Positions 5,238-20,342 of a stretch of 20,627 nucleotides of DNA are shown piece by piece. Location: positions 1-20,627 of the forward strand of contig SFIM01000035.1 of the NCBI GenBank assembly GCA_004556155.1, in the 5' to 3' direction. The translations under genes and the position numbers were made by a program. The notes under the pieces are model-generated. The model did not search any database, was not told the DNA's origin, and worked only from the letters and a program-made list of their open reading frames with translations. Positions within the stretch are counted from its first letter, which is position 1. Every line of letters starts with the position of its first letter. The DNA comes from Clostridiales bacterium (GTDB lineage: Bacteria; Bacillota; Clostridia; Christensenellales; Aristaeellaceae).

Positions 5238-5885
5238 ATGGAAAGCGGAAAACGCATTGAAATGATCTATAACGGGAAGGCTGTTACCATCCTTAACCAG
5301 CGCAGCCGCCTGTGGACGCACCCCTACGATTACAGAACACCGCAGAAGGCAACGTTATCCAGCGCCGGCTGCGGTGTGTTTTCTATCTGCCATTGCGGCC
5401 AGTGGCTGACAGGCAAGGCTTTTTCGCCCGAGGAGCTGGCGGACTTTTCCATGCAGAACGGCGGCCGCGGCGACGACGGTACCGACCGTCCTGCGCTCTT
5501 GTCCGCCATGATGCAAAAGGGCCTGGCGGCGCAGTATGGCTTCAGTTATCAGGGCGATGGGCTGCGCAATGATCTGGAAACGCTGCGGGTGCATCTGCTG
5601 GAGCACCGCGGCGTAGCGCTGTGCAATCTGCGCGTGGGGCATATCGTATCGCTGCTGGATGCGCGCGAGGCGGACGGCGAGGTGCAGGCATTGGCGCTGG
5701 ATTCCTACAGCGAATCGATGGAAGAAAAGATTCGTCCGCATGTGCGGGAAATTGTGCCGCAAAGCGCGGTGGATACGCTGGTGCGAAACGACGCGGGGCT
5801 GGTTGTGGGTCAGCGACGGCAGTATGCCATGTATTGGGTGGATACCGCCATTGTGCGCGATTTTAACCTGCTGCACGCGCTTTGA
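5238..5885 (+). CDS. Hypothetical protein, possible papain-fold/C39-like cysteine peptidase
   Basis: GGAGG lies 4 nt upstream. Candidate nucleophile context is SSAGCGVFSICH, with a downstream LRVGHIVSLLD. No family was firmly recognised. Confidence 0.5.
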   Translation: MESGKRIEMIYNGKAVTILNQRSRLWTHPYDYRTPQKATLSSAGCGVFSICHCGQWLTGKAFSPEELADFSMQNGGRGDDGTDRPALLSAMMQKGLAAQYGFSYQGDGLRNDLETLRVHLLEHRGVALCNLRVGHIVSLLDAREADGEVQALALDSYSESMEEKIRPHVREIVPQSAVDTLVRNDAGLVVGQRRQYAMYWVDTAIVRDFNLLHAL

Positions 5886-5905: not shown

Positions 5906-7630
5906 ATGACCAAACGCAGAGCCTTCAAAAGATGGATCGCGGGGCTTTCCGCGCTGGTAATGCTGCTGACGATCGGCCTTGCGCTGCCTGTGGGCGCGCG
6001 GGCTGAAAAGAATACCGTGCGCGTGCTGCTGACGCGCCTGAACCTGACCGACCGGCTGGAAATCGCCCTGGACGGCAGCTATACGCTGGACGGCATGAGC
6101 TTTCAGCGCGGCTCCAGGCTGGTGCTGTCCTGCGCGACAGGGCGCATCATGGTCTATTACGAGGGCATGGCGCTGGACAGCGGCAAGGAGCTTGTTCTTA
6201 CCCGCCATCAGGCAGCGGAGGGCTTGGAAAACGGCCTGCGCCTGAATGGCGATTACGCGCTGTATCGCGGCGATTTGCATGTGAAGACGGATGGAAAAAT
6301 GCTGACCGCTGTGCTGCATATCCCCATCGAGGAATACCTGCTGGGCGTGGTGCCCTATGAGATGAGCGACAGCTTTCCGCTGGAAGCGCTCAAGGCGCAG
6401 GCGGTCGCCGCGCGCACCTATGCGCTGTATAAGATGCGGGGAGCCAGCGGCGCGTATGATCTGGTGGATAATACCAACGATCAGGTATTCCGCGGCTATA
6501 ACGCCAGCAACGAGCGCGCTATCCGCGCCGTGCAGGAGACGGCGGGCGTGGCCTGCTATAATAATGGTGCGCTGGCAATTTGCTATTACACGGCCAGCAA
6601 TGGCGGCCAGGTGGAGCTGGTGCGCAATGTGTGGGGCAAGGGCGAGGGTGATTACATCACCATGCACGATGATCCCTACGATGTGGAAAATCCCGAAAGC
6701 GTGGTCAAATCTGCCGCTATTGCCAAAACAGCCAAGGATGGGATCGTCTATAATCAGCAGCTGACGGATTATCTGCTGGACGGCGTATCCGAGGCCGTGA
6801 CGGCACTGGGGTACAGCGGCGACGCGGCAGATACGCGCATTGCCGGGGTGGCGGGCATCAGCCTGCATACGCCGCAGGGCGGGACGAGCGCCAAGGTAAT
6901 GACGCAGATGCGCTTTGATCTGACGGTGCAGTGCCGCCAAAAGCCCACCGCCGCCATGCAGGATGAAGAGGTGAACCTTTTTGCCATGCCGGAAACGACC
7001 CCCGAGGCCACCTCTGCGCCGCAGCCGACCCAGGCGCCATTTGTTACGCTGGAGCAAACGGTGCAGGTGGATGTGCCGGTGTTCAGCGCCATCGAGCCCT
7101 GGCTGGGTCTATCCATCAATGGCAGTAACAACGAGATCCTGACCGTGCGCGAGGAGAATGACCGGTATGTGATTGAATCCCGTCGCTACGGTCACGGCGT
7201 AGGCATGAGCCAGCGCGGCGCGCAGTGGATGGCCGGGCAGTACGGATGGACATACGATCAGATCCTGCGGTTCTATTATCCGGGGCTGGCGCTCAAAAAG
7301 ACCGATACGCAGGTGACACTGCCGCCGACGGTATCCGCTGCCTTCCTGACTACGCCCGGCCCTGCGGCTACGCCCACGCCGCGCCCCACCCTGATGCCGG
7401 CTTCCGATCAGCTGAAGGCGGGCGAATGGCGCGTTAAGGTAACGCAGATATCTGCCAATTCTTCCCTGAATCTGCGCAGCGCTCCCAGCACGGCTTCCGA
7501 TGTACTGCGCGTGCTCTATTATGGGCAGGAGCTGCTTGCTTCCCCCTGTGATGAGGAGGGGTGGATCAAGGTGCGCACCGACGTGACCGAAGGCTATGTG
7601 ATGGAAAAGTTTGTGGAAAAAATAGAATAA
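5906..7630 (+). CDS. SpoIID/LytB domain protein with C-terminal SH3b domain
   Basis: N-terminal signal/anchor (LSALVMLLTIGLALPVGARA). SpoIID hallmarks are EEYLLGVVPYEM, LKAQAVAARTYAL, YYTASNGGQ and GHGVGMSQRGAQ. A Pro/Thr-rich linker is followed by an SH3b-like WRVKV...LNLRSAPS...GWIKV. Confidence 0.85.
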   Translation: MTKRRAFKRWIAGLSALVMLLTIGLALPVGARAEKNTVRVLLTRLNLTDRLEIALDGSYTLDGMSFQRGSRLVLSCATGRIMVYYEGMALDSGKELVLTRHQAAEGLENGLRLNGDYALYRGDLHVKTDGKMLTAVLHIPIEEYLLGVVPYEMSDSFPLEALKAQAVAARTYALYKMRGASGAYDLVDNTNDQVFRGYNASNERAIRAVQETAGVACYNNGALAICYYTASNGGQVELVRNVWGKGEGDYITMHDDPYDVENPESVVKSAAIAKTAKDGIVYNQQLTDYLLDGVSEAVTALGYSGDAADTRIAGVAGISLHTPQGGTSAKVMTQMRFDLTVQCRQKPTAAMQDEEVNLFAMPETTPEATSAPQPTQAPFVTLEQTVQVDVPVFSAIEPWLGLSINGSNNEILTVREENDRYVIESRRYGHGVGMSQRGAQWMAGQYGWTYDQILRFYYPGLALKKTDTQVTLPPTVSAAFLTTPGPAATPTPRPTLMPASDQLKAGEWRVKVTQISANSSLNLRSAPSTASDVLRVLYYGQELLASPCDEEGWIKVRTDVTEGYVMEKFVEKIE

Positions 7631-7641
7631 GCAGAAAAGCA

Positions 7642-7673
7642 AGCGGTGTGACCATAAAGGCCACGCCGCTTTT
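7642..7673 (-). terminator. Hairpin in the convergent intergenic region, likely terminator for the minus-strand operon
   Basis: A 12-bp imperfect stem, AGCGGTGTGACC / GGCCACGCCGCT. On the minus strand it is followed by TGCTTTTCTG. Confidence 0.45.
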
Positions 7674-7681
7674 GAATGCTG

Positions 7682-7711
7682 AGCGTCTGCCGTGAAAGCA
7701 GGCGCTTTTTT
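7682..7711 (+). terminator. Intrinsic terminator of the SpoIID-like gene
   Basis: Stem AGCGTCTGC / GCAGGCGCT with a 7-nt loop, followed by TTTTTT. Confidence 0.6.
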
Positions 7712-7719
7712 ATAATCCT

Positions 7720-8670
7720 TTAGTTGAAGGTGACGTACTGATCCTTGGCTTTTTCGGTGGGCTCGGCGCTCACCTGCATCAGCGCTACCACCTCATGATC
7801 CTGCGCCTTGTTGTATACCGTTTGCGCCTTGGCGGTGAGGGTATACCACTGCGTCTTGGAGGGCTTGAGATCACCCCGGCACAGGAAGCCCAGGCAAGTG
7901 ATATCGTTGGCGCAGCAGGTCATGGCCAGACGGCCGAAGCGGAAGAACCCCTTCGGCACGCCGGGCTCGGCAAACACCTGCCCCTTGAAGCGCACCACCT
8001 TATCATCGTAGCGGTTAGGGTGATCCAGCGCGTCCAGGTAGAAAGTGCCGTAATTCTCCTCGCTGATGTCGATCACGTCCGCCTTCATATCATAGGGCAG
8101 ATCCTCGTCGGATACGCCGTCATCCGAGTGGCCATCGTTGTATTCAAACAGGATGGTCGTGGTGCTGTTCATGGCGCGCAGCTGCCGCCGCCAGGCGCTG
8201 ACGTTCATATCGTTTTCGCAGCGATTGAACAGGATCAGGTCGGCGTTCTGCATGGGATCGGTCATCAGCTGGCGCATATTGTTCATGTAGGAGTCGAAGG
8301 TCGTCGCATCCACCATGTCAATCACCTGCACAAGCTCCCACTTGGGGGGCAGCTGCATGGTATCCAGCTTTGCAAAGGTGAAGGTGTTGTTGTATTCGAT
8401 GATGACGCGCTCGGGCTTATACTGCTTGTTCAAATCCACAAACAGGGAGGGCGTCATGTCCTCCACGCTGTCCACCATGTGCAGCGTCACCTTTTGCTTG
8501 GCCAGCTTTTCCGCGTCGTATTCCTCCTCGCCGTCCTCGCAGACGACCAGCAGCGTTTTCTGCCCGCGGGAGAAGCTCTCGTCGTCGATCATGTTGTGGA
8601 TCAGCGTGGTTTTGCCGCTGTCCAGAAAACCGGCGACAATATAAATGGGGATAATCTGATTGACAGGCAT
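7720..8670 (-). CDS. Degenerate G3E (CobW-like) P-loop GTPase domain fused to a DUF1980/YcgQ-type C-terminal CC-motif domain
   Basis: AAGGAG lies 7 nt upstream. The N-terminus has Walker A VAGFLDSGKTTL with CobW-like order (LVVCEDGEEE, VIIEYNN, VIDMVDATTF, ADLILFNR) but no GCxCC motif. The C-terminal VRFKGQVF...FRFGRLAMTCCANDITCLGFLC...DQYVTFN matches my recollection of the soluble C-terminal domain of YcgQ/TIGR03943 proteins (ARFxMTCCAAD ... PYVY). Confidence 0.65.
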   Translation of the reverse strand: MPVNQIIPIYIVAGFLDSGKTTLIHNMIDDESFSRGQKTLLVVCEDGEEEYDAEKLAKQKVTLHMVDSVEDMTPSLFVDLNKQYKPERVIIEYNNTFTFAKLDTMQLPPKWELVQVIDMVDATTFDSYMNNMRQLMTDPMQNADLILFNRCENDMNVSAWRRQLRAMNSTTTILFEYNDGHSDDGVSDEDLPYDMKADVIDISEENYGTFYLDALDHPNRYDDKVVRFKGQVFAEPGVPKGFFRFGRLAMTCCANDITCLGFLCRGDLKPSKTQWYTLTAKAQTVYNKAQDHEVVALMQVSAEPTEKAKDQYVTFN

Positions 8671-8682
8671 GAGAATGCTCCT

Positions 8683-9858
8683 TTACACGCCGAAGAGTTC
8701 GCGCAGCGCCTTTTCATCGATATGGGTGCCGATTACGCACAGGCGGCCGGTATAATCGGCGCTGCCGTAGCGGATATCGGTTTCGCCGGGCACATAGTCA
8801 AAGTGCAGCCAGCGGCCATCCTCGGCCTGCACAATGCCCTTGGCACGCAGGATAGCGCCGTAATCTTCCTCCTCCGACAGCTTGGCCAGCGCGGCACGCA
8901 GACCGTCCTCGGTGAAGCGCTTGGCGGTTTCTACGCCGATGTTCTCAAAGATTTCATCCGCGTCATGGCCATGATGATGGTGATGATGCTCATGATCGTG
9001 GCCGCAGCCGCAATGGCCGTGCTCATGGTCGTGATCGTGCTCGTCATGGGCATGCTCATCATGGTCATGGTCGTGATCCTCGTCATGATCGTGATCGTGG
9101 TGATGATGATGCTCGTGCTCGTCGTCATCATCGTCATCGTCTTCGTCATGATGGTGGCCGCAGCAGCAATGGCCATCCTCATCGTGATGGTGATGATGGT
9201 GCTCATGCTCGTGTTCGTCCTCGTCGTCGTCCTCCACGTCTTCCATGGTCAGCAGGGCGGCGGGATGCTCGATGGTATCCAGGATGGTTTCAGCGCTCAG
9301 ATCGCCCCAGGGCGTGGTGATGATGCGCGCGGCAGGGTTCTGCTCGGCCACCAGCTGACGGCTCTTTTCTACGCGCTCGGGATCCTGCAGCTGGGTGCGG
9401 CTGAAGATGATGGTTTCGGCGCTCTTGATCTGATCCAGGAAGAACTCGCCGAAGTTCTTCATATAGGTGCGGCAGCGGTTGGCGTCCACCACGGTGGCGC
9501 AGCCGGTGATTTCGATTTCGGGATGATGCTCGCGGGCTTCCTCCACAGCGCGGCGGATATCGCTCAGCTTGCCAACGCCCGTGGGCTCTACCAGCAGACG
9601 ATCAGGATGGTAGGTATTGATCAGATCGTCAATGGCCTTCTGGAAATCGCCCGCCAGGGTGCAGCAGATGCAGCCGCTGTTCAGCTCGGTCACAGTAATG
9701 CCCGCATCCTTCATGAAGCCGCCGTCCACGCCGACCTCGCCGTATTCATTTTCAAGCAGAATCACCTTTTCGCCCTTCATCGCGCCGGAGATCAGCTTTT
9801 TGATCAGCGTGGTTTTGCCAGCGCCCAGAAAACCGGAAATAATGTTAACCTTGACCAT
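8683..9858 (-). CDS. COG0523/CobW-family G3E GTPase metallochaperone with a very long His/Asp/Cys-rich insertion
   Basis: AGGAG lies 8 nt upstream. Walker A GFLGAGKTTL, ENEYGEVGVD, the canonical metal motif GCICC, and LLVEPTGVG. The C-terminal LRAKGIV...WLHFDYVPG...LCVIGTHID resembles a CobW_C domain. A His-rich linker sits between the two domains. Confidence 0.9.
   Translation of the reverse strand: MVKVNIISGFLGAGKTTLIKKLISGAMKGEKVILLENEYGEVGVDGGFMKDAGITVTELNSGCICCTLAGDFQKAIDDLINTYHPDRLLVEPTGVGKLSDIRRAVEEAREHHPEIEITGCATVVDANRCRTYMKNFGEFFLDQIKSAETIIFSRTQLQDPERVEKSRQLVAEQNPAARIITTPWGDLSAETILDTIEHPAALLTMEDVEDDDEDEHEHEHHHHHHDEDGHCCCGHHHDEDDDDDDDEHEHHHHHDHDHDEDHDHDHDEHAHDEHDHDHEHGHCGCGHDHEHHHHHHGHDADEIFENIGVETAKRFTEDGLRAALAKLSEEEDYGAILRAKGIVQAEDGRWLHFDYVPGETDIRYGSADYTGRLCVIGTHIDEKALRELFGV
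8962..9246 (-). repeat. Low-complexity coding tract (CAT/CAC/GAT/GAC/GAG codons) encoding the His/Asp/Glu/Cys-rich linker
   Basis: My hand count finds about 39 His, 5 Cys (one CCC and one CGC cluster) and otherwise almost only Asp/Glu across about 97 residues (MEDVEDDDEDEHEHEHHHHHH...HEHHHHHHGHDAD). Confidence 0.9.
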
Positions 9859-9873
9859 AATGATTGCTCCTTT

Positions 9874-10956
9874 TTAATGTTGGTCGTTTGCGTATATGAT
9901 ATCCTGTACCGCGCCTTCACCCTCGATAAAGGGATTGAGCGTAAAAGGGGTATCGCTTTGAAGAATATCCATCACCCGCTGGGCCTTGTCGCCCGTGACG
10001 GGAACGGGCTGATAGTTGTTGATCTGCTCGTCGCCCGTTTCGTAATAGGGATGGATGGTAAACTGGGTGGAATAGAGCTGGTTTTGATCAAACTGCAATT
10101 CCACCGACATCAGAGCGGTGGGAATCTGCTTGGCCGTTTTCTTATCCGACAGCGGGTTCTTGTTGCCGCCGAAAACGAAATTGCCCAGGCTGTAGAAGAT
10201 CAGGCGGTTCTTGTACACCTCGATGCCCTGCAGCACATGAGGATGCGTGCCCACCACCAGATCGGCGCCGCTGTCGATGGCGTGGCGCGCAAAGCGGGTC
10301 TGATCCTTATCGTTGTGCTTGTCCTGGTATTCTTCCCCATGGTGCAGGCAGACAATCACAAAATCCACGCCGTCCTCGGCCTTCATGCGCGGGATTTCCT
10401 TTTCGATCCACTGATAATACATTTCCATATAGTACCGGCGGAAGGAAAGCACGGCGAACTTGACGCCGTTGCGCTCGAAGGTGAAGGTATCGGTATTGTA
10501 AGCCCACTGAATGCCCGCCTCGGTCAGGTTCTTCTGACAGTCCTTCAGGCCGCCCTGACCATAGTCCAGCGCGTGGTTGTTGCTCAGGCTCACGCCCTCT
10601 ATGCTGTTTTGAGTCAGCATGTTTACAAAGTCGGCTGGGCCGCGGAAATTGGTGTACAGGCTGGCGTTTTTATAGCTTTTCTTGTCCGTCAGCACGCATT
10701 CCAGGTTGATCAGCGTGTAATCGTCCTGCTCAAAGAAATCCTTGGCGTACTTGAAGGGATAGGCGTAATCGTTGCCCATCGCACGGATCATGCCCACCAG
10801 AGAGTCCTTTTCGCTGTGAAGCGGTTCATCCGAGCCTAAAATGCAGTCACCCACCAGCGTCATGCGCACGGTGGTCAAATCCTTTTGCTCCTCCGCCAGG
10901 CCGCTTAGCGGCAGGCAGATGAGCAGGGCAAGCAAAAGTGCGGTCAGCTTGCGCAT
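9874..10956 (-). CDS. Secreted CapA/PGA_cap-family metallophosphoesterase-like protein
   Basis: GGAGGA lies upstream. Signal peptide MRKLTALLLALLICLPLSGLA. PGA_cap-type motifs are LVGDCIL, INLECVL, SLSNNHALDYG, CLHHGEEY, GADLVVGTHPHVLQG and FYSLGNFVFGG. Confidence 0.8.
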   Translation of the reverse strand: MRKLTALLLALLICLPLSGLAEEQKDLTTVRMTLVGDCILGSDEPLHSEKDSLVGMIRAMGNDYAYPFKYAKDFFEQDDYTLINLECVLTDKKSYKNASLYTNFRGPADFVNMLTQNSIEGVSLSNNHALDYGQGGLKDCQKNLTEAGIQWAYNTDTFTFERNGVKFAVLSFRRYYMEMYYQWIEKEIPRMKAEDGVDFVIVCLHHGEEYQDKHNDKDQTRFARHAIDSGADLVVGTHPHVLQGIEVYKNRLIFYSLGNFVFGGNKNPLSDKKTAKQIPTALMSVELQFDQNQLYSTQFTIHPYYETGDEQINNYQPVPVTGDKAQRVMDILQSDTPFTLNPFIEGEGAVQDIIYANDQH

Positions 10957-11009
10957 CCTGATCCTCCTGTTTTCCCATTGACCTGGGGCTTTTCCTCAGG
11001 CCGGACAAT

Positions 11010-11038
11010 ATTTTATCACCCTTTGTCAAGATTATCAA
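11010..11038 (-). promoter_or_regulatory. Candidate promoter of the CapA-like/COG0523 operon
   Basis: On the minus strand: TTGATA (11038-11033), a 17-nt spacer, then TAAAAT (11015-11010). It is embedded in four phased TTGAC/TTGAT repeats. Confidence 0.35.
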
Positions 11039-11150: not shown

Positions 11151-11295
11151 GGATTTCAAGCCCTTGCTCCGTCGGATTGATCCTGAAAATGCGGGAGTGG
11201 AACTTTGACATGTGGAATAACAAAAGGGAGTGGCGCGCGCCGACTCCCTTTTTACGGATGAAACAGCAGCAATGAAATAATTGGAGGGAAAAACC
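11151..11295 (+). ncRNA. Structured 5' leader of the moeA operon, candidate Moco (molybdenum cofactor) riboswitch
   Basis: About 145 nt lie between the predicted TSS and the moeA ATG. GGGAGTGG is duplicated (11193-11200 and 11226-11233). A GC-rich hairpin plus T-run is present. A 5' CUCC element (11167-11170) is complementary to both GGAG copies and to the RBS GGAGGG (11283-11288). The family call rests on gene context only. Confidence 0.4.
11226..11253 (+). terminator. Leader (attenuator) terminator upstream of moeA
   Basis: GGGAGTGGCGC / GCGCCGACTCCC stem with one bulged G, followed by TTTTT. It lies inside the 5' UTR, 43 nt before the start codon. Confidence 0.6.
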
Positions 11296-12510
11296 ATGCT
11301 GAGAAAACCGGATTTTATCACTGCGCGGGCATACCTGGCCGATCGGATGACGCCGGTGGAAACCGAGCGCGTCAGCTTGTCGGAGGCGGCGGGGCGCATC
11401 CTGGCGGAGGATCTAATTGCGGCGGATAACATTCCGCCCTTTGACCGTTCACCCTTTGACGGCTATGCCTTCCGCGCGGCGGATACGGCGCAGGCCAGCC
11501 CCGAGCATCCGGTGACGCTGACCATCCTGGAGGAGGTGCCCGCGGGCGCGGTGCCTGCCAAGCGCGTGACGCCCGGCACGGCGACCAAGATCCTGACGGG
11601 CGCGCCCATTCCTGAGGGGGCGGACTGCGTAAGCATGTTTGAGCGCACGGAGTTTACCCGCGAGACGGTCACGTTGTTTGCCCCTGGCAGCGCGGGGGAG
11701 AACATCATCCTGGCGGGCGAGGATGTGAAAAAAGGCACGCTGCTGGTGCGCAAGGGCGCGCGTATTGACGCGGGTGTGGCCGGCACGCTGGCCGCGCAGG
11801 GCGTAAGCCAGCCCCTGGTTTACCGCAGGGTACGGGTGGGCATTATCTCCACCGGCAATGAGGTGATTGCGCTGGATAAAACGCTGCGTCCCGGCAAGAT
11901 TTACGATTCCAACCGCTACATGTTAGAGGCGGCTGTGATGCAGTTGGGCATGGTACCTGTGCATCTGGGGCTGATTGGGGACGACGCGGACGGCATCGCG
12001 CGCCTGATTGAAAAAGGCTTGCCCGACTGCGATGTGATCCTGCTTACGGGCGGCGTATCCGTGGGCGATTATGATCTGACCCCGGCGGCCATCGAACAGG
12101 CGGGCTGCGAAATGCTGATTCGCGGCGCGTCCCTTAAACCCGGCATGGCCTGCGCCATTGGCATGAAGGACGGCAAGCTCGTGTGCGGCCTTTCGGGCAA
12201 TCCTGCCAGTGCGCTGACCAATTATTATGCCATCACGCTGCCCGCGCTGAAAAAGCTGGCGGGATACAGCGAGCCCATTCCCAGAGAGATCGAAATCACG
12301 TTGGCCGACAGCTTTGGCAGAAAGAGCAAGCGCACGCGCCTGCTGCGCGGCAAGCTGGATCTGTCCGACGGCACGGTACGCATGCGGCTTCAGCCGGAGC
12401 AGGGCAACGTGGTGCTGTCCAGCGCCATCGGCTGCGACGCAATGGCCATTGTGCCGGAAGGCAGCGGCCCGGTTCCCGCCGGAACAAAACTGAAAGGATT
12501 CCTGCTGTAA
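11296..12510 (+). CDS. moeA: Molybdopterin molybdenumtransferase MoeA
   Basis: GGAGGG lies 7 nt upstream of the ATG at 11296. Motifs: PPFDRSPFDGYA, TKILTGAPIPEGAD, GIISTGNE, IYDSNRYML, LLTGGVSVGDYD, LKPGMA and LSGNPASAL. Confidence 0.9.
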   Translation: MLRKPDFITARAYLADRMTPVETERVSLSEAAGRILAEDLIAADNIPPFDRSPFDGYAFRAADTAQASPEHPVTLTILEEVPAGAVPAKRVTPGTATKILTGAPIPEGADCVSMFERTEFTRETVTLFAPGSAGENIILAGEDVKKGTLLVRKGARIDAGVAGTLAAQGVSQPLVYRRVRVGIISTGNEVIALDKTLRPGKIYDSNRYMLEAAVMQLGMVPVHLGLIGDDADGIARLIEKGLPDCDVILLTGGVSVGDYDLTPAAIEQAGCEMLIRGASLKPGMACAIGMKDGKLVCGLSGNPASALTNYYAITLPALKKLAGYSEPIPREIEITLADSFGRKSKRTRLLRGKLDLSDGTVRMRLQPEQGNVVLSSAIGCDAMAIVPEGSGPVPAGTKLKGFLL

Positions 12511-12587
12511 AAAAGGAAAATGCCGGGCGTGCGGCGAACAGAACGGTCTGCCGCCGCTTTCATTGCATGCCTGGCAGGGACGGAACT

Positions 12588-13541
12588 ATGCGCGATCAAT
12601 ACGACAGAGAAATCAACTATATGCGCCTGTCCGTGACGGATCGGTGCAATTTGCGCTGCCGCTACTGCATGCCCGAGGAAGGCGTTTGCAAAAAGACGCA
12701 TGAGGAGATGCTGACCGAGGACGAGATGATCGCCGCCGTGGAGGCGGGCGCATCGCTGGGCATTACCAAGCTGCGCATCACGGGCGGCGAGCCGCTGGTC
12801 AAGCGCAATATCATCACGCTTTGCGCGCGTGCGGCCAAGGTGGATGGTATCCGCGAGGTGGCTATCACCACCAACGGCGTTCTTTTGCCTAGGCTGGCCA
12901 AGGGGCTGCGCGCGGTGGGCGTGAGCCGCGTGAACCTGAGCCTGGATACGCTGAAGCCGGACAAATACGCGCGGATTACGCGCATCGGCACGCTGAGCAG
13001 CGCGCTGGCCGGGCTGGATGCGGCGCTGAACGCGGGCTTTGACAAGGTGAAGATCAACGCGGTGCTCATCGGCGGCTTTAATGATGACGAAATCGAAACG
13101 CTGGCGGCGCTTACGCTGCGCTATCCGGTAGACGTGCGCTTTATTGAGCTGATGCCGATGCTGGATCATCCGGAATTTGGCCCGGAAGCCTTTATCCCCT
13201 GCGCAGCGGTGCTGGAGAAGCTGCCCCAGGCCGTGCCTGTGCCGCAGGATGGCGGCGTCGCCAGGCTGTATCGTTTGCCGGGGGCGCAGGGCAATATCGG
13301 CCTGATCAGCCCGGTGAGCGCGCATTTTTGCGCGGCGTGCAACCGCATACGCCTGACGGCGGACGGCAAGCTCAAACCCTGCCTGCACGCAGCTGAGGAG
13401 GTTTCGCTCAAGGGCCTGAATGCTGCGCAGATGCGCGAGACGATGCAGCGCGTGATCTATCAAAAGCCCTTCCGCCATGCGGAGCTGTCTGCGACGCTGC
13501 ATAGTCAGGCGGGACGCAACATGAACCAGATCGGAGGATAA
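12588..13541 (+). CDS. moaA: GTP 3',8-cyclase MoaA (radical SAM)
   Basis: YMRLSVTDRCNLRCRYCMPEEG (the CxxxCxxC cluster), LRITGGEPL, TTNG, NLSLDTL, and the C-terminal cluster FCAACNRIRLTADGKLKPCL. The tracked ORF start at 12183 overlaps moeA and was rejected. The ATG at 12588 is the most plausible start; 12567 is an alternative. Confidence 0.9.
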   Translation: MRDQYDREINYMRLSVTDRCNLRCRYCMPEEGVCKKTHEEMLTEDEMIAAVEAGASLGITKLRITGGEPLVKRNIITLCARAAKVDGIREVAITTNGVLLPRLAKGLRAVGVSRVNLSLDTLKPDKYARITRIGTLSSALAGLDAALNAGFDKVKINAVLIGGFNDDEIETLAALTLRYPVDVRFIELMPMLDHPEFGPEAFIPCAAVLEKLPQAVPVPQDGGVARLYRLPGAQGNIGLISPVSAHFCAACNRIRLTADGKLKPCLHAAEEVSLKGLNAAQMRETMQRVIYQKPFRHAELSATLHSQAGRNMNQIGG

Positions 13542-13546
13542 AAGGC

Positions 13547-14089
13547 ATGGCGATCCTTGAAAAGGCTGGCCTGGACGCGGCACGCCCAGGCGTGCCCAAT
13601 CAAAGCGACTTTACACACTTTAACGCGCAGGGCCGCGCTCGAATGGTAAACGTCGGCGATAAAGCGCCTTCCCATCGCACGGCGACGGCGGGCGCGCGCG
13701 TGCTGGTCAGCCGTGAAACCTTTGCGCTGATCCAAAGCGGCGGCATGAAAAAGGGCGATGTGCTCACCGTGGCGCAGATTGCGGGCGTAATGGGGGCCAA
13801 GCGCACGCCGGAGCTGATTCCCATGTGCCATCCCATCATGATGACGGGGATTGATCTGGCGCTTTCGCTGGATGAAGCGCGCTGCGCGGTGGATATCCGC
13901 GCGACGGTATCCTGCGACGGCAGGACGGGCGTGGAGATGGAGGCGCTGACAGCGGCCTCCACCGCGGCATTGACGGTTTATGATATGTGCAAGGCCGTGC
14001 AGAAGGATATGGTGATTACAGATGTTCGCCTGATTGAAAAAACTGGCGGCGTTCACGGCGATTTTCATAGAGAGGAAGCAGAAGCATGA
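13547..14089 (+). CDS. moaC: Cyclic pyranopterin monophosphate synthase MoaC
   Basis: GGAGGA lies 8 nt upstream. Motifs: FTHFN..G.ARMVNVGDK, KGDVLTVAQIAGVMGAKRTPELIPMCHP and GVEMEALTAAS.AALTVYDMCKAV. Confidence 0.9.
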   Translation: MAILEKAGLDAARPGVPNQSDFTHFNAQGRARMVNVGDKAPSHRTATAGARVLVSRETFALIQSGGMKKGDVLTVAQIAGVMGAKRTPELIPMCHPIMMTGIDLALSLDEARCAVDIRATVSCDGRTGVEMEALTAASTAALTVYDMCKAVQKDMVITDVRLIEKTGGVHGDFHREEAEA

Positions 14090-14988
14090 GCTATACGGCG
14101 GCGATTTTGACCATAAGCGATAAGGGCGCACGCGGTGAGCGCGAGGATAAGAGCGGACCGGTTCTGTGCGAGCTGGCGGCGGAGCATGGGTATCAGGTGG
14201 TTTATACCGCGATCATTCCCGATGAAAAGGATCAGATTCAGGCGGAGCTGATTAAATGCAGCGATGAACTGCATGTAAACCTGGTGCTTACCACGGGCGG
14301 CACGGGCTTTTCCCCGCGCGATGTTACGCCCGAGGCAACGCTGGCAGTGGTGGAACGCGAAACGCGCGGCATTCCTGAGGCCATGCGCATGGAAAGCATG
14401 AAGATTACCCCGCGCGGCTGCCTGTCCCGCAGCGCGGCGGGCATCCGCGGGCGGACGCTGATCATCAACCTGCCTGGCAGCCCCAAGGCGGCCAGGGAGA
14501 ACGTGCTGGCCGTGATCGACGCGATTCAGCATGGCATGGAAATGCTCATGTCTGAGGGCTCGGCGGATTGCGCGCAGACGCAGGATAAGTCCGCGCAGAA
14601 AAAGCAGCGCCCTTCCATTGACGCTTGGCTAAACGAGGCGAAAAAGGATCCGAATGCCGATCAGATCGGCATGTATCTTACGCATAACGGCGTTGTGCGC
14701 AGGACGGCGAAGGCTCAGGTTCGCGCGGGCGAGGCCGATGCAAAGCCGGTGACGGGCATGCATTTTACCTACAATGCGGCCAAGATGGAAGCCGCCGTGG
14801 CCGAGGCCAAGCATATGCCGGGCATTTATTATGTAAAGGCCTGGCTGAATGAGGGCGAGCTGGCGGTTGGCGATGATATCATGCTGGTGCTTGTCGGCGG
14901 CGATATCCGTCCCCATGTTGTGGATGCGCTGCAGGCCCTTGTAGGCAAGCTGAAAACGGAATGCGTGACGGAGCTGGAGCGTGCGTAA
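14086..14988 (+). CDS. MogA/MoaB-family domain fused to a divergent MoaE-like C-terminal domain
   Basis: Its start overlaps the moaC stop as ATGA. The N-terminal roughly 160 aa carry TISDKG, LTTGGTGFSPRDVTPEAT and INLPGSPKA (MogA/MoaB hallmarks). The C-terminal roughly 125 aa align by eye with E. coli MoaE (GELAVGDDIMLVLVGG vs GELWPGDEIVFVGVTS) but lack the SAHR and FWKRE residues. Confidence 0.7.
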   Translation: MSYTAAILTISDKGARGEREDKSGPVLCELAAEHGYQVVYTAIIPDEKDQIQAELIKCSDELHVNLVLTTGGTGFSPRDVTPEATLAVVERETRGIPEAMRMESMKITPRGCLSRSAAGIRGRTLIINLPGSPKAARENVLAVIDAIQHGMEMLMSEGSADCAQTQDKSAQKKQRPSIDAWLNEAKKDPNADQIGMYLTHNGVVRRTAKAQVRAGEADAKPVTGMHFTYNAAKMEAAVAEAKHMPGIYYVKAWLNEGELAVGDDIMLVLVGGDIRPHVVDALQALVGKLKTECVTELERA

Positions 14989-16656: not shown

Positions 16657-16781
16657 TGAGCTATGAAGCAGTGATTCTTGGCGGCGTGGGCATCGTCGGC
16701 AGTGTGCCGGCAATGCCCATCTGCCGCAGCATTTTCACCGTTCAGGCGGGCGATTCTGCGGGATTGGAGCGTGCGCAATGA
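16656..16781 (+). CDS. 41-codon translationally coupled micro-ORF (MSYEAVILGGVGIVGSVPAMPICRSIFTVQAGDSAGLERAQ)
   Basis: Not in the ORF track because it is shorter than 60 aa. Its ATG overlaps the upstream stop (GTGATGA) and its TGA overlaps the downstream ATG (ATGA). GAAGGAG lies 7 nt upstream. The N-terminal half is hydrophobic. GC3 is about 66% by my count, like neighbouring genes. Confidence 0.4.
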   Translation: MSYEAVILGGVGIVGSVPAMPICRSIFTVQAGDSAGLERAQ

Positions 16782-17401
16782 AACCGACTGTGATCGACCC
16801 GAAAACGACTACCCGCGCGGAGGCTTATGCCCTTTGGATGGACGCGCCCAACCCCATGGTAACCTTTTTCAAAACGCTGGATGTTGCGCCGCTGATTCGC
16901 TTTAGCCGCAGGCGCGGGATGAAATTCAATATGCTGCTGTGCTTCTGCATCGGCAAGGCCGCCAGCGAAATCAAGGAGTTTTATATGCTTCCTGTGGGAA
17001 GGGAGCTGCTCAAATACGATACGATTGCCGTCAATACCATTGTGAAGAACAAGAACGGCGAGGTCAGTTCCTGCGATGTGCCGTTTTCGGACAGTCTTGC
17101 GCAGTTCAACGCCGACTATCTGCGTCTGACGCGGCATGTGGCCGAGCGCTGTGAAAACCATGATCTGCCCGACAGTATGGTCATCGGCACCTCCGCCATT
17201 GTGGATACCGAGCTGGACGGCGCGGTGGGCATGAACAGCGGCATTTTTAACAACCCCTTTATCATCTGGGGCAGGTACCATTCAGGGCTTTTCAAAACGA
17301 CGCTTAAGCTGTCGTTTCAGTTTCATCACACGCAGATGGACGGCGCGCACGCGGGGCGCTTTTTGCAGCACGTGCAAGAGAATATCAAGCATATTCAATG
17401 A
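16778..17401 (+). CDS. Type A chloramphenicol acetyltransferase (CatA)-like O-acetyltransferase
   Basis: GGAG lies 8 nt upstream. At 207 aa it matches CAT proteins in length. The C-terminal LSFQFHHTQMDGAHAGRF matches the catalytic QVHHAVCDGFH-type motif of CAT proteins. The substrate is unknown. Confidence 0.75.
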   Translation: MKPTVIDPKTTTRAEAYALWMDAPNPMVTFFKTLDVAPLIRFSRRRGMKFNMLLCFCIGKAASEIKEFYMLPVGRELLKYDTIAVNTIVKNKNGEVSSCDVPFSDSLAQFNADYLRLTRHVAERCENHDLPDSMVIGTSAIVDTELDGAVGMNSGIFNNPFIIWGRYHSGLFKTTLKLSFQFHHTQMDGAHAGRFLQHVQENIKHIQ

Positions 17402-17404
17402 ATA

Positions 17405-17641
17405 ATGAGGAGAAATAGTGAACTTAAATCGTCCGTCAGCTTCTTGAAGAAACAGGAATTTATTGAAAAGGCAGAATTATTTAATTCCTACAGAGTTGGA
17501 GCAGTTCACAGGATGCGAAGAACAAACTTGGATACGTTAGCTGTAGAACTCCAAAAGGTAAAAGGCTGTTTCGATGAAATATTTGACCTTTATAACGACA
17601 TTCAAGATGATTTCCGCGTGATATTCCACAGCCTTCAATAA
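17405..17641 (+). CDS. Hypothetical 78-aa ORF at the left edge of the AT-rich island, possibly a gene fragment
   Basis: It is an open frame only, with no RBS and AT-rich composition unlike its neighbours. It lies between the CAT-like stop and the 17697-17740 terminator. Confidence 0.2.
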   Translation: MRRNSELKSSVSFLKKQEFIEKAELFNSYRVGAVHRMRRTNLDTLAVELQKVKGCFDEIFDLYNDIQDDFRVIFHSLQ

Positions 17642-17696
17642 AGATACTTTTGTTGAGTACCTAACAGACAAAGAATACGACGAATATTCTGGATAG

Positions 17697-17740
17697 AAAA
17701 AGAGCTATCCGACTTCATTCGAAATCAGATAGCTCTTTTC
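17697..17740. terminator. Bidirectional-looking intrinsic terminator
   Basis: Stem AGAGCTATC (17701-17709) / GATAGCTCT (17728-17736), extended by an inner GACTTC/GAAATC pairing. It is flanked by AAAA on the 5' side and TTTTC on the 3' side. Confidence 0.55.
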
Positions 17741-18536
17741 TTGTGAATAATGAAATTCTGTTGCCAAATCGTTGCCACGAGGGGCATCAAGACTCAAAAA
17801 GTCCAGTGTTTACGGGCTTTTTTGAACCTATGCAATCATTCCCACTCTCTCAGACTTAACGCATTATGTGTAATTTACGTGTATCTGATTCCAAGTGGTG
17901 ACTCTGATTCTCTGAGGCATTCCTATTCCACTGCCTGTACGGCCTCCGGTTATCATTTTGTTATCAGCGCGATAACAGGGGAGACTGTTTTGCTGTAGCA
18001 GTTTGAGAATTTCCACAAGTATAGTATAGCGCAGAACGGGTGCTGATGCAAGAGAAAAGATATTTGGCGAATAAATGCATTTGAAGTTTGTCCTAGTATA
18101 TATTACAGTTTGTGAATATAAATATCAATAGCTGTGATATACCTCTGTGAATGCACAATTATTCTTACATATGCCCAGGGTGGCCACCTTGTATCAAAAA
18201 CTGGTGCATATTATGTGGTATCACGCAAAAAAACAATGTGTTTATAACCTTTCATTTTGCATTGGGGCTTTCGTTTGGTCATTTGACCGTGATGGGTGCA
18301 AATCGATTTGAGTGGGTGCTTTTTTGTGCTATCGTTTTGCAATAGGAATACTGGAGTTTGAATGCAACAAAGTATAGCGTATATTCGAATATCAAGTATA
18401 CTGAATTTTGAAGGTGGAGGTTATTCTGCAAGAACTGATGTTGCCTCCGCAGGTAGCTTTCTGATAGCAGTTATAACCTCGACAACCCAGCAGGGAACTG
18501 GACTGCTTACAGAAAAATAGACAGTGAAATAAAGCA

Positions 18537-18581
18537 CCCTCCTGTTGTAGAATTGAGGAAGTCAAAACTACGACAGGAGGG
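18537..18581 (+). promoter_or_regulatory. Hairpin sequestering the RBS of the IS3 OrfA remnant
   Basis: CCCTCCTGTTGTAG (18537-18550) pairs with CTACGACAGGAGGG (18568-18581): 14 bp with one G-U. The 3' arm contains AGGAGGG, 7 nt before the ATG at 18589. Confidence 0.5.
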
Positions 18582-18588
18582 TCGTTTT

Positions 18589-18858
18589 ATGTCCAGATCA
18601 TACACACATGTGCAGGAATTGCTGCCCAGCGTATTGGCAATGAAGGGGAAAGGGTACACATATCGACAGATTGCAAAACAATTCGGCTTAGCAAAGGAAC
18701 AAGTTGAGGAACTATGCAGCAGAGCGCGAAGAAAGCAGCGAAGAATTGAGAAAGGTTATATTCCTCAACCCAAGGGTCGCCCGAGAAAAACGCCGGCCAC
18801 ACAGGAGCAGTTGCAGAATACAAGGCCTTTCCTGCTCTGCGCTCATTGCTTGCGTTGA
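18589..18858 (+). pseudogene. Truncated IS3-family transposase OrfA (HTH) fragment
   Basis: MSRSYTHVQELLPSVLAMKGKGYTYRQIAKQFGLAKEQVEELCSRARRKQRRIEKGYIPQPKGRPRK resembles the N-terminus of Firmicute IS3/IS150-group OrfA proteins. Similarity stops after ...QEQLQN, and no leucine zipper, frameshift site or OrfB follows. Confidence 0.55.
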
Positions 18859-18969: not shown

Positions 18970-19827
18970 TTACAGCGCCGCGCGGATATCCGCAAGCACA
19001 TCGGCGGGGATGGTGAACTGCACCATGCCCGAGGACATCGGGGCCACGTCGCCCTCATCGAAGCTGATGACCACCTCGTTCTGACCGTTCACGAAGAAGT
19101 CGGCGTTCTTGACCACCTCGGCCAGATCGAAGTCCGGCATATCCTCATCGTCCAGCCAGAAGGTGTTTTCGGCGTTTTCGGCGGTCAGCGCCTTCATCTG
19201 CGCCGCAATGCTGTCGGTGATGCGGGCGATATAATCGCTGCCCTCGGTGAACAGGTCAGCCAGCGTGAGGCGCTTGCCGGTCTGCAGGTCGATGGTGTAG
19301 TAGTAATCGCTCTGCGCGCCGGAGCCGGAGGCGGTGTAGCACATCAGGCGCAGGGTGAAATAGCGCTCAGTCTCGTTGAGTACCTCGTACTCGATGATGG
19401 TGTCCTGATGATAGCCCTCGTCCAGAGAGGTCTTGAACTGATCGACGTATTCCTGCGCAATCGCGGCGATTTCCGCGTTGATGCCGGTGACGGCGTCCTT
19501 TGCTGCCTCGGCGGTTGCCTCGTCGGATTCGGGCTGGATGCTCAGCTCCGGCACCTGAATATCGGCGGAGTGATCGGCGTCTTGATGCTGGTACTGTTCC
19601 GCCGTGTTGGCGATCAGACCGAGCTGGGTCGCGGCCAGCGCAACGGCGCAGATGGCCACAATGGCAAATACCAGAACAGGCATAAAAGCAAGCTTCTTTT
19701 TCATGGGACGTTCTCCTTCTTTCACTTGGTTCAGCACGCGCTGCGTCAGCCAGGGATCTTCCTGGATGCCCGACGTTTTCCAATCCGCGGCGCGCTCAAT
19801 TTTTTGCCGGAATTCCTGATCCGTCAT
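18970..19827 (-). CDS. RsiV-like anti-sigma factor (N-terminal cytoplasmic domain, one TM, extracytoplasmic DUF4163/DUF3298-like domain)
   Basis: Its start overlaps the sigma gene stop as ATGA. One TM helix (LAFMPVLVFAIVAICAVALAA). The C-terminus has the pattern YFTLRLMCYTASGSGAQSDYYYTIDLQTGKRLTLADLF ... ISFDEGDVAPMSSGMVQFTIP, typical of DUF3298/RsiV ectodomains. Confidence 0.75.
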   Translation of the reverse strand: MTDQEFRQKIERAADWKTSGIQEDPWLTQRVLNQVKEGERPMKKKLAFMPVLVFAIVAICAVALAATQLGLIANTAEQYQHQDADHSADIQVPELSIQPESDEATAEAAKDAVTGINAEIAAIAQEYVDQFKTSLDEGYHQDTIIEYEVLNETERYFTLRLMCYTASGSGAQSDYYYTIDLQTGKRLTLADLFTEGSDYIARITDSIAAQMKALTAENAENTFWLDDEDMPDFDLAEVVKNADFFVNGQNEVVISFDEGDVAPMSSGMVQFTIPADVLADIRAAL

Positions 19828-20342
19828 AGGTTTCCCTCCTCTAACTGTTTCCGCAGCCTTTTTTTGGCATCCGTCAGACGGCGCGAGACCGTCGACAGGG
19901 ATGTATTGAGAATGGCGGCAATTTCTGTGAGAGACATATGCTGCCAGAAGTGCAGCAGGATGACCTCGCTGTATTTGGCTGGAAGCGCCTGAATGGCCTG
20001 AATCAATTCGTCGTCATGCTCGGCCATCTCGTAGGCGGGTTCGGGCAGGTTGGCGATGTCCACGCTTCGGTTGACGAAGCGCGACCACCGGCTCTTCTGC
20101 ATATCCCGGCAGACATTGGCTGCAATGCGCAGCAGCCATGTTTTCTCGCTGCACTCATGCCGGAATTCGGGCAGCGCTTTATAGGCTTTGATGTATACCT
20201 CCTGAACCGCGTCCTCCGCCTGCGAAGCATCCTTGAGCCAGAAGCTGCACATATGCAGCAGCGTCTTTTGATACTCCACAACCAGCCGGTTCAGCTCTTC
20301 CTCGATGTTTTGAGAATTGTCAGGGCCCGTGACAATTTCCAT
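19824..20342 (-). CDS. ECF-type RNA polymerase sigma-70 family factor
   Basis: GGAGGAGG lies upstream. Region 2 is AEDAVQEVYIKAYKAL...WLLRIAANVCRD and region 4 is LPAKYSEVILLHFWQHMSLTEIAAILNTSLSTVSRRLTDAKKRL. Confidence 0.9.
   Translation of the reverse strand: MEIVTGPDNSQNIEEELNRLVVEYQKTLLHMCSFWLKDASQAEDAVQEVYIKAYKALPEFRHECSEKTWLLRIAANVCRDMQKSRWSRFVNRSVDIANLPEPAYEMAEHDDELIQAIQALPAKYSEVILLHFWQHMSLTEIAAILNTSLSTVSRRLTDAKKRLRKQLEEGNL

Follow-up and report, generated by a model that had tools for sequence, protein, structure and literature searches.

COG0523 proteins occur in all kingdoms and matter under host metal restriction, and both their clients and their mechanism are poorly defined. According to reviews of the family, they are probably monomeric chaperones, each encoded by a single gene, with clients that are not known (PMC11672702; PMC2770081). 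In this study, we analyzed a 20,627-nucleotide (nt) stretch of DNA from a Clostridiales bacterium (contig SFIM01000035.1; "the window" hereafter means this full stretch), in which three consecutive genes, A, B and C, encode a CapA-like protein, a COG0523 GTPase and a second, divergent G3E protein with a C-terminal DUF1980_C domain, respectively. The window organism is a human-gut bacterium, and contigs with a C gene 97-100% identical to window C came from human gut metagenomes. Loci labelled L001 and so on are relatives fetched from elsewhere.

With the COG0523 zinc chaperones (YjiA, YeiR, ZigA, ZagA/YciC, MigC and ZNG1), B shares the P-loop, the CxCC motif, the ExxG form of Walker B, a variable His-rich linker and a CobW_C domain with an invariant RxKG, and among solved structures YjiA matched B, and likewise the model of C, best. 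However, B differs from these chaperones in having SRTQ in place of [NT]KxD, in scoring below the equivalog cut-offs and in that no Zur box was found. Moreover, unlike the single-gene chaperones, B is paired with a dedicated divergent paralogue, C. Some other G3E/SIMIBI NTPases dimerise (HypB, UreG, the SRP54-FtsY heterodimer and Nbp35-Cfd1), with related P-loops pairing at the nucleotide site and metal ligands lying at the interface. HypB, UreG and the signal recognition particle (SRP) GTPases were the next structural matches of C after YjiA. In contrast with these NTPases, the motifs of C are degenerate, so that a B-C complex would be asymmetric, with an active enzyme and a pseudo-enzyme. 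No description of such an asymmetric G3E complex was found in the literature searched.

DUF1980 proteins (ScfB, YcgQ and the Streptococcus mutans SMU.746-SMU.747 pair) belong to a "permease" encoded by two genes, in which they are the small subunit and the partner is of the ArsP_1 type; mutants show lower fitness in streptococcal infection and acid tolerance, the substrate being not known (PMC5584981). The C-terminal domain of C is homologous, over its full length, to that of the DUF1980/TIGR03943 small subunit and shares R-x-x-M-x-C-C-x-x-D with it; however, C has neither the N-terminal transmembrane domain nor an adjacent ArsP_1 gene, and has a G3E domain fused instead. In Bacillus anthracis, the ArsP_1 permease operon BAS1632 adjoins the COG0523 gene yciC (BAS1633), and the upstream regions of BAS1632 and BAS1633 each contain two Zur boxes and are bound by Zur (PMC6336718). 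BAS1632-yciC could, rather tentatively, be regarded as an independent association of COG0523 with a DUF1980 permease.

The third protein, A, matches PGA_cap, the family of B. anthracis CapA and the MslH epimerase, end to end. Unlike in the CapA capsule system, capB, capC and capE were not among the window neighbours of A (the G3E genes, a SpoIID-like gene and molybdenum-cofactor genes), capB/capC (pgsB/pgsC) were not seen at the related loci examined, and NAGPA and cell-wall enzymes recur beside A homologues. Taken alone, B is a new but unremarkable COG0523 protein, and A is an ordinary member of the CapA family.

B and C form a conserved gene pair in gut Clostridia

Homologues of C formed more than 1,600 clusters (90% identity), and every cluster listed shared its two-domain architecture. 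At least 588 species genomes of Christensenellales, Oscillospiraceae and Lachnospiraceae encoded C, and the carriers include Blautia, Coprococcus, Flavonifractor, Butyricicoccus and Kineothrix. We sampled the loci around C in 80 species genomes (76 with upstream DNA) and in 80 metagenome loci (77 scored). In all 76 species loci and in 76 of the 77 metagenome loci (152/153 altogether), the gene directly preceding C, in the same orientation, was B, and when a B homologue was chosen from the B side, C was again found downstream. The gaps between both genes were short, and in one fourth of the species loci (19/76) the two genes overlapped by 4 nt (ATGA), which is typical of translational coupling. 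The paralogues B and C are inherited together, share one orientation and are in many cases translationally coupled. The preliminary description of this locus, made before any comparison with other genomes, had passed over B-C alone as a near-invariant cassette across Clostridia.

No third recurrent family was found near B-C: when all open reading frames (ORFs) within 6-7 kb were clustered, only B, C and antisense shadows emerged, the latter making up the second- to fifth-largest "families". Pfam families of the neighbours peaked at 3/62 upstream and 6/78 downstream, and the commonest neighbours were housekeeping genes (L20, NFACT, peptidyl-tRNA hydrolase (Pth) and YlmH, and also SecG and L13/S9). 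A conserved third partner was therefore rejected on the basis of both the ORF clustering and the Pfam counts. In the literature searched, we found no description of a protein combining cobW and DUF1980_C or of the B-C pair, and in databases these proteins are named only "GTPase", "hypothetical protein" or "CobW family GTP-binding protein". Both the B-C cassette and the cobW + DUF1980_C architecture appear to be undescribed, although they are found in hundreds of gut Clostridia species.

The A-B-C trio is restricted to one clade

All three genes were found together in six distinct genomic contexts: the window, L001, L081, L083, L087 and L089. In the five fetched trio loci, A, B and C were 66-67%, 78-84% and 69-77% identical to their window counterparts, respectively, and A-B spacing ranged from 8 to 30 nt. 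A was present upstream of B-C only where C was at least 69% identical to window C. Among 62 species loci, a PGA_cap gene was upstream of B-C only in L001, which itself belongs to the trio clade. Among metagenome loci, the trio was present in 17 of 17 with C at least 74% identical and in 0 of 38 with C at most 54% identical. Two fairly close relatives, L085 (B 80%, C 67%) and L086, had B-C without A. We take B-C to be the old unit of the operon and A the young one.

Analysis of A itself pointed to the cell envelope. A matched PGA_cap over residues 32-263 (E = 8e-56; 189.7 bits, cut-off 27), and its sole solved relative by sequence was MslH (8GQ9; E = 5e-12, residues 196-262), its score against the MslH equivalog being far below the cut-off (64 bits vs 700). 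Stretches resembling metallophosphoesterase-type motifs (NNH, HHGEE, GTHPH and GNF) could be read from the sequence. As read from the translation without a predictor, A has a hydrophobic N-terminal leader lacking a twin-arginine motif, and comparable leaders were present in its orthologues in L001, L081, L083, L087 and L089. Homologues of A comprised an orthologue clade of 62-100% identity, below which identity dropped to at most 47%, and we examined the contexts of five of the more distant ones. In L096 and L097, the homologue was immediately downstream of a gene for a NAGPA-type phosphodiester glycosidase, one other was half of a tandem PGA_cap pair, and another was near a YkuD transpeptidase gene. 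In the trio loci L087 and L089, a PG_binding + NAGPA gene was directly upstream of A. A NAGPA gene, in some cases with PG_binding_1 or PIG-L, was thus directly upstream of a CapA-like gene in four unrelated contexts (Table 1), which suggests that the two may form an envelope-polymer processing pair, acting for example on N-acetylglucosamine-1-phosphate.

We read A as a gene for a putative cell-envelope enzyme that came, in the ancestor of a single gut lineage, to stand downstream of the promoter and upstream of B; A is very likely cotranscribed with B-C and is probably not a client of the chaperone. This changes the picture given in the preliminary description, which had proposed a three-part metal-limitation system with A as the client or a starvation-induced enzyme. 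The operon anatomy in that proposal stands (see below), whereas broad conservation of the three-part composition does not: the trio is confined to one clade, and the proposal had itself been made to depend on a neighbourhood conserved beyond close relatives. The role given to A is likewise not borne out, A being absent from B-C outside this clade and found elsewhere beside NAGPA or other cell-wall genes. On the other hand, its remark that direct cytoplasmic metallation of A is not obviously possible with a Sec-type rather than twin-arginine leader agrees with our reading, in which such metallation is implausible.

Sequence and structural features of B and C

B matched the Pfam hidden Markov models (HMMs) of cobW (E = 1e-37; 129.4 bits, cut-off 20.7) and CobW_C (E = 4e-9; 36.8 bits, cut-off 22), and Escherichia coli YjiA (1NIJ) with E = 1e-19. 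Its GCICC motif, which aligns with CxCC of YjiA, was invariant in all 30 homologues of the family alignment. The linker of B comprises 95 residues (205-299), of which 39 are His, 27 Asp, 15 Glu and 5 Cys; HCCCGH and HCGCGH occur in it, and each of the 30 homologues has a similar linker of varying length. Arg338, Lys340 and Gly341 of the RAKG motif were also invariant in this set, and RxKG has been reported as an intramolecular arginine finger and GTPase activator for ZigA and MigC (PMC13001444). The G4 motif was different: B has SRTQ, which does not match [NT]KxD, where YjiA has TKTD, and in the B family S-R-T was conserved and the fourth residue was Q, D or G. The nucleotide preference of B is uncertain because of this replacement. 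Judged from its motifs, B has all those required for metal-stimulated GTP hydrolysis. Scores against NCBIfam equivalogs were below the cut-offs (ZigA, 80.5 vs 600; CobW, 91.2 vs 332; YeiR-type PRK11537, 81.2 vs 361). The best NCBIfam match of the G domains of both B and C was NF041053, "CobW-related selenoprotein" (E = 1e-26 and 4e-13, respectively, both below cut-off), which hints that the nearest curated relatives may be short, selenocysteine-containing proteins consisting of the G domain only.

C gave a weaker cobW match (E = 5e-12; 46.3 bits, cut-off 20.7) and a match to DUF1980_C (PF21537; E = 4e-15, 56.2 bits, cut-off 25.9). It scored 61.3 bits against TIGR03943 (cut-off 88.8), matching only the C-terminal half of that model. 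No match to PF09323, the N-terminal transmembrane domain of DUF1980, or to CobW_C was obtained for C with Pfam HMMs. The HMM searches therefore upheld all four family calls of the preliminary description (cobW, CobW_C, DUF1980_C and PGA_cap). Its view of B as a canonical His-rich G3E protein and of C as a second, non-canonical one also holds. Comparison of the C and B families using hhalign gave a probability of 99.2% and 26% identity, covering the G domains only, and on this comparison C is an ancient paralogue of B. Both proteins have Arg in place of the G4 Lys, which fits an old tandem duplication.

We then counted the motifs of C in 76 homologous loci. Walker A (GFLDSGKTT) was intact, and GF[LI][ED][SA]GKT was present in all 76. 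The Walker B Glu was kept and the switch II Gly was lost, C having IEYN(N/S) for E(P/T)(S/T)G (ExxG). In G4, NRC replaced [NT]KxD with loss of the Asp (NRC-type in 73/76), and CxCC was found in none of the loci (0/76). Instead, C contains other conserved cysteines. Cys44 lies in CE[ED]G, which was present in 74 of 76 loci, and of the two exceptions L055 (CEQG) keeps the Cys. Through the B-YjiA alignment, Cys44 corresponds by position to Glu37 of YjiA, which we take to be a zinc ligand in the crystal structure, consistent with the title of entry 4IXN (Zn-bound E37A/C66A/C67A mutant). Cys151 is within the NRC motif, and Cys252-Cys253 are in R-x-x-M-[TV]-C-C-x-x-D, with M[TV]CC in 76/76. Thus, C looks able to bind nucleotide but catalytically degenerate, with new conserved cysteines, as far as motifs can tell.

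The AlphaFold2 model of C had a predicted local distance difference test (pLDDT) score of 87 for the whole protein and 91 for the C-terminal domain alone. Foldseek returned YjiA, HypB and UreG as top matches of the model, and also SRP GTPases. The C-terminal domain was modelled as a helix followed by a five-stranded beta structure and gave only weak matches in the PDB to oligonucleotide/oligosaccharide-binding (OB) folds (E = 2e-3 to 3e-2; template modelling score (TM-score) by query mostly 0.34-0.44), namely single-stranded DNA-binding protein (SSB), the N-terminal domain of the minichromosome maintenance (MCM) protein and aspartyl/asparaginyl-tRNA synthetases. A search of 1.84 billion representative sequences with this domain alone yielded 668 clusters at 50% identity, mostly fusions of about 316 residues. 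Genuine membrane DUF1980 proteins were recovered as well; one of these, P0192, which has the N-terminal DUF1980 domain and DUF1980_C, was 35% identical across the whole domain (E = 2e-26), and the Cys pair of C is found there as MACC.

We also considered that DUF1980_C might be a diverged CobW_C, as suggested by the resemblance of R-F-K-G (residues 227-230 of C) to RxKG. This was rejected: the hhalign comparison covers the G domains only, the model is weakly OB-like without an alpha-beta sandwich, and the Lys of R-F-K-G is variable, with K-L-K-G at this place in P0192.

Promoters and regulatory elements

An upstream riboswitch or other RNA element was rejected on the Rfam result, a search of the whole window (E <= 1) that gave only two chance microRNA matches. 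For Zur, Fur and PerR boxes, we searched the regions upstream of B in 64 loci with six consensus sequences, and the best matches were at the level of shuffled sequence; these consensus sequences come from other phyla and may not be those of the host. In the same 64 loci, only elements of ribosome-binding sites (RBSs) and sigma-A promoters were enriched as k-mers. Many B loci had a near-consensus CTTGACA-17-TGnTATAAT promoter, and a short GC-rich hairpin comes directly after it, where the mRNA is predicted to begin. The window has a comparable hairpin (CCTGAGG...CCCCAGG, approximately 10973-11000) after the promoter-like site upstream of A. Such 5'-end hairpins may stabilise the mRNA. When the upstream regions of A from three trio loci were aligned, promoter hexamers were all that they shared. 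B-C expression appears to be constitutive rather than Zur-repressed, because the promoters are near-consensus and no metalloregulator box was enriched. The induction by metal limitation that had been proposed for these genes thus found no cis-regulatory support. In the alignment, a putative tRNA-like sequence was observed between a promoter-like element and the CapA gene in L081 (approximately 5600-5700).

A model for B-C and its alternatives

With moderate confidence, we propose that B-C is a constitutive heteromeric metallochaperone, with zinc as the likeliest metal and A as a passenger. B and C would pair through their G domains into a nucleotide-dependent heteromer, as the dimerising G3E/SIMIBI NTPases do. 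B would supply metal, with the His/Asp/Cys linker as buffer and CxCC as binding site, and would provide GTP hydrolysis and GTP-driven switching. C would serve as a non-catalytic or weakly catalytic adaptor partner, whose Cys44 and/or Cys-Cys-Asp site in DUF1980_C would take and hold the metal and present it to client proteins. Analogy with the majority of bacterial COG0523 proteins makes Zn(II) the likeliest metal. A more specific form, in which B-C is an obligate asymmetric G3E heterodimer of an active GTPase and a pseudo-GTPase and the DUF1980_C Cys-Cys is a dedicated module for metal acceptance and delivery, is put forward only tentatively and is open to considerable doubt.

Several observations weigh against the proposed chaperone. 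COG0523 proteins have been reported to be monomeric, unlike HypB and UreG (PMC11672702), so a G-domain heterodimer would be unusual for the family. The Met/Cys-Cys/Asp motif and the poly-His linker are as compatible with Ni, Co, Cu(I) or Fe as with zinc. A lineage-specific operator could have escaped our search, the Zur-box consensus coming from other phyla. In L129, a 2.2-kb metagenome contig, C is found without B and is preceded, at a distance of about 90 nt, by a YebC/PmpR-like gene; either a true rearrangement or a chimera from assembly could explain this exception. With regard to A as a passenger, the trio is intact across at least six flanking contexts within its clade, which speaks to some extent for an A-B linkage kept by selection and not by accident. 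Moreover, the gene for a distant A homologue (46% identity) shares 4 nt with a co-oriented gene encoding a repressor of the DtxR/MntR family (Fe_dep_repress), a second, independent tie of this CapA subfamily to a metal-related gene.

The original idea was that of a zinc-limitation module, in which A, B and C act together and the exported CapA-like dimetal enzyme is the client or a metal-sparing enzyme induced by starvation. The tight A-B-C spacing under one promoter-like site, the retention of the trio in six contexts and in every close metagenome locus, the DtxR-family overlap, and the fact that COG0523 genes often adjoin their clients or metal-sparing paralogues (PMC2770081) all speak for such a module. 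However, at the loci examined outside the trio clade A is not upstream of B-C, the fairly close relatives L085 and L086 included, the recurrent neighbour of CapA genes is NAGPA or another cell-wall gene, and no Zur-like box was found. In addition, A would fold and take up its metal outside the cell because its putative signal peptide is of the Sec type. We consider the module quite unlikely, and a functional linkage of A is still granted a small probability because the trio persists in several flanking contexts. The possibility that B-C is the same heteromeric chaperone, but for Ni, Co, Fe or Cu(I) or for one anaerobic metalloenzyme, leaves the proposed mechanism in place and is rather unlikely in our view. 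Met-x-Cys-Cys suits thiophilic metals, poly-His/Asp linkers with Cys clusters resemble the Ni-storage regions of HypB-type proteins, COG0523 includes the Co chaperone CobW and activators of Fe-type nitrile hydratase, and the fact that no Zur box was found points in the same direction. Against it, genes for hydrogenase, carbon monoxide dehydrogenase, urease, cobalamin and nitrile hydratase were not recurrent nearby (CbiC in 1/62 upstream neighbours), the actual neighbours of B-C being housekeeping genes, and the CobW and HypB equivalog scores stayed below their cut-offs.

The only other known setting of DUF1980_C is at the C-terminus of the small subunit in two-component permeases, and C might also be a soluble stand-in for an ScfB/YcgQ-type subunit that docks on an ArsP_1/ScfA-type permease encoded elsewhere, so that B-C would couple GTP hydrolysis and metal buffering to membrane import or export of metal. 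The vicinal Cys pair kept in both soluble and membrane forms, and the Zur boxes upstream of such a permease operon beside yciC in B. anthracis, are in line with this explanation. Nevertheless, no permease gene recurred within approximately 6-7 kb of B-C in 80 loci, and the substrate and function of ScfAB itself are not established. Furthermore, the three N-terminal helices of P0192 would, by the positive-inside rule applied by eye, place its DUF1980_C outside the cell, unlike the cytoplasmic C. Docking of this kind therefore seems unlikely. Finally, the degenerate catalytic motifs and low cobW score of C would be expected of a decaying, functionless duplicate of B, but an intact, full-length C was present in at least 150 loci and in no fewer than 588 species, and C has dozens of invariant columns (four cysteines among them) and a confident AlphaFold2 model, and is translationally coupled to B, which makes decay highly improbable.

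The proposed B-C chaperone is a naturally "split" system in which the release of metal from a COG0523 chaperone can be studied, and it gives a first functional handle on DUF1980_C, whose membrane form in ScfB/YcgQ is needed for group A streptococcal infection; B-C is thus a testable entry into both COG0523 metal handover and the role of DUF1980. If the heterodimer were true, it would be the first two-component COG0523 system, and DUF1980_C would be a general metal-handling domain, with the ScfAB/YcgQR "permeases" as transporters of thiophilic metals. For annotation, A should not be called a chaperone client on the strength of this operon alone.

Operon anatomy and other features of the window

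Coordinates of all features are shown in Table 1. All three genes lie on the minus strand, with gaps of 15 nt between A and B (9859-9873) and 12 nt between B and C (8671-8682), and each ATG is preceded at 7-9 nt by an RBS (AGGAGG for A, AGGAG for B and C). Between A and the divergent moeA gene lie approximately 320 nt of intergenic DNA. Past the end of C, the transcript is predicted to form two hairpins with a U-rich run after the second (-35.6 kcal/mol, z = -5.1; 0/200 shuffles as stable); the first of these doubles for the convergent SpoIID-like gene on the plus strand, whose terminator spans 7681-7707. A consensus scan of the A-B and B-C gaps gave no strong promoter or terminator, and weak internal matches were at chance level (promoter-like, 4 vs 2.4 expected; terminator-like, 6 vs 4.5 expected). 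Judging from this layout, A, B and C are very likely cotranscribed. The ORF coordinates and gaps, the AGGAG-type RBS of each gene, and the single upstream region and downstream terminator region in the preliminary description were all recovered here.

Table 1. Positions of the features discussed, in the window and in related loci
Feature	Sequence	Positions	Strand	Basis or remark
Promoter-like site, TTGATA-17-TAAAAT, TG upstream of -10 hexamer	window	11010..11038	-	10/12 matches to consensus; 54 nt upstream of the ATG of A
Gene A, secreted CapA-like (PGA_cap) metallophosphoesterase-fold protein, 360 residues	window	9874..10956	-	Pfam
Putative Sec-type signal peptide of A (MRKLTALLLALLICLPLSGLA / EEQ)	window	10894..10956	-	read from translation
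Gene B, canonical COG0523 G3E GTPase metallochaperone, 391 residues	window	8683..9858	-	Pfam, YjiA match
B GCICC metal-binding motif, residues 62-66	window	9661..9675	-	family alignment, alignment with YjiA CxCC
B His/Asp/Glu-rich linker, residues 205-299	window	8962..9246	-	composition count
B RAKG motif, residues 338-341, in CobW_C domain	window	8836..8847	-	matches RxKG arginine-finger motif
Gene C, divergent G3E paralogue + DUF1980_C fusion, 316 residues	window	7720..8670	-	Pfam, homologue set, AlphaFold2
C G3E-like nucleotide-binding domain, residues 1-180	window	8131..8670	-	hhalign, Foldseek, motif counts
C DUF1980_C domain, residues 186-316	window	7723..8115	-	Pfam PF21537, AlphaFold2
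C MTCC vicinal-cysteine motif, residues 250-253, then conserved Asp256	window	7912..7923	-	homologue motif counts
Terminator region: two hairpins, second followed by UUGCUUUUCUGCUU	window	7630..7706	-	folding
Near-consensus promoter + hairpin	L004, L005, L006, L008, L009, L013, L014, L015, L030	~40-110 nt upstream of B		
C without B	L129	1-1609		
NAGPA-CapA stretch	L087	3239-6083		
NAGPA-CapA stretch	L089	3151-6224		
NAGPA-CapA stretch	L096	1862-5074		
NAGPA-CapA stretch	L097	2095-4120		
CapA homologue / DtxR-family overlap	L091 and L092	4627-6059		

On the plus strand, an ORF of 1,014 residues (7795..10839) runs antisense over most of A, B and C. It is taken to be spurious, and the antisense ORFs that appeared in the neighbourhood clustering were comparable to it.

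Divergent from A, a molybdenum-cofactor operon occupies 11281-14988 on the plus strand and comprises moeA, moaA, moaC and a MoCF_biosynth + MoaE fusion; Rfam revealed no Moco riboswitch in the window. A link between the trio and this operon was rejected, as the operon was present at no other trio locus, and the juxtaposition looks coincidental for the same reason. Further along, a low-GC stretch (approximately 17000-18700; 0.40-0.45 vs approximately 0.57 in the rest of the window) is flanked by an ORF for a chloramphenicol acetyltransferase (CAT)-like acetyltransferase (16778-17401) and by a DUF3298 / extracytoplasmic function (ECF) sigma factor pair (18970-20342), and may be horizontally acquired or non-coding.

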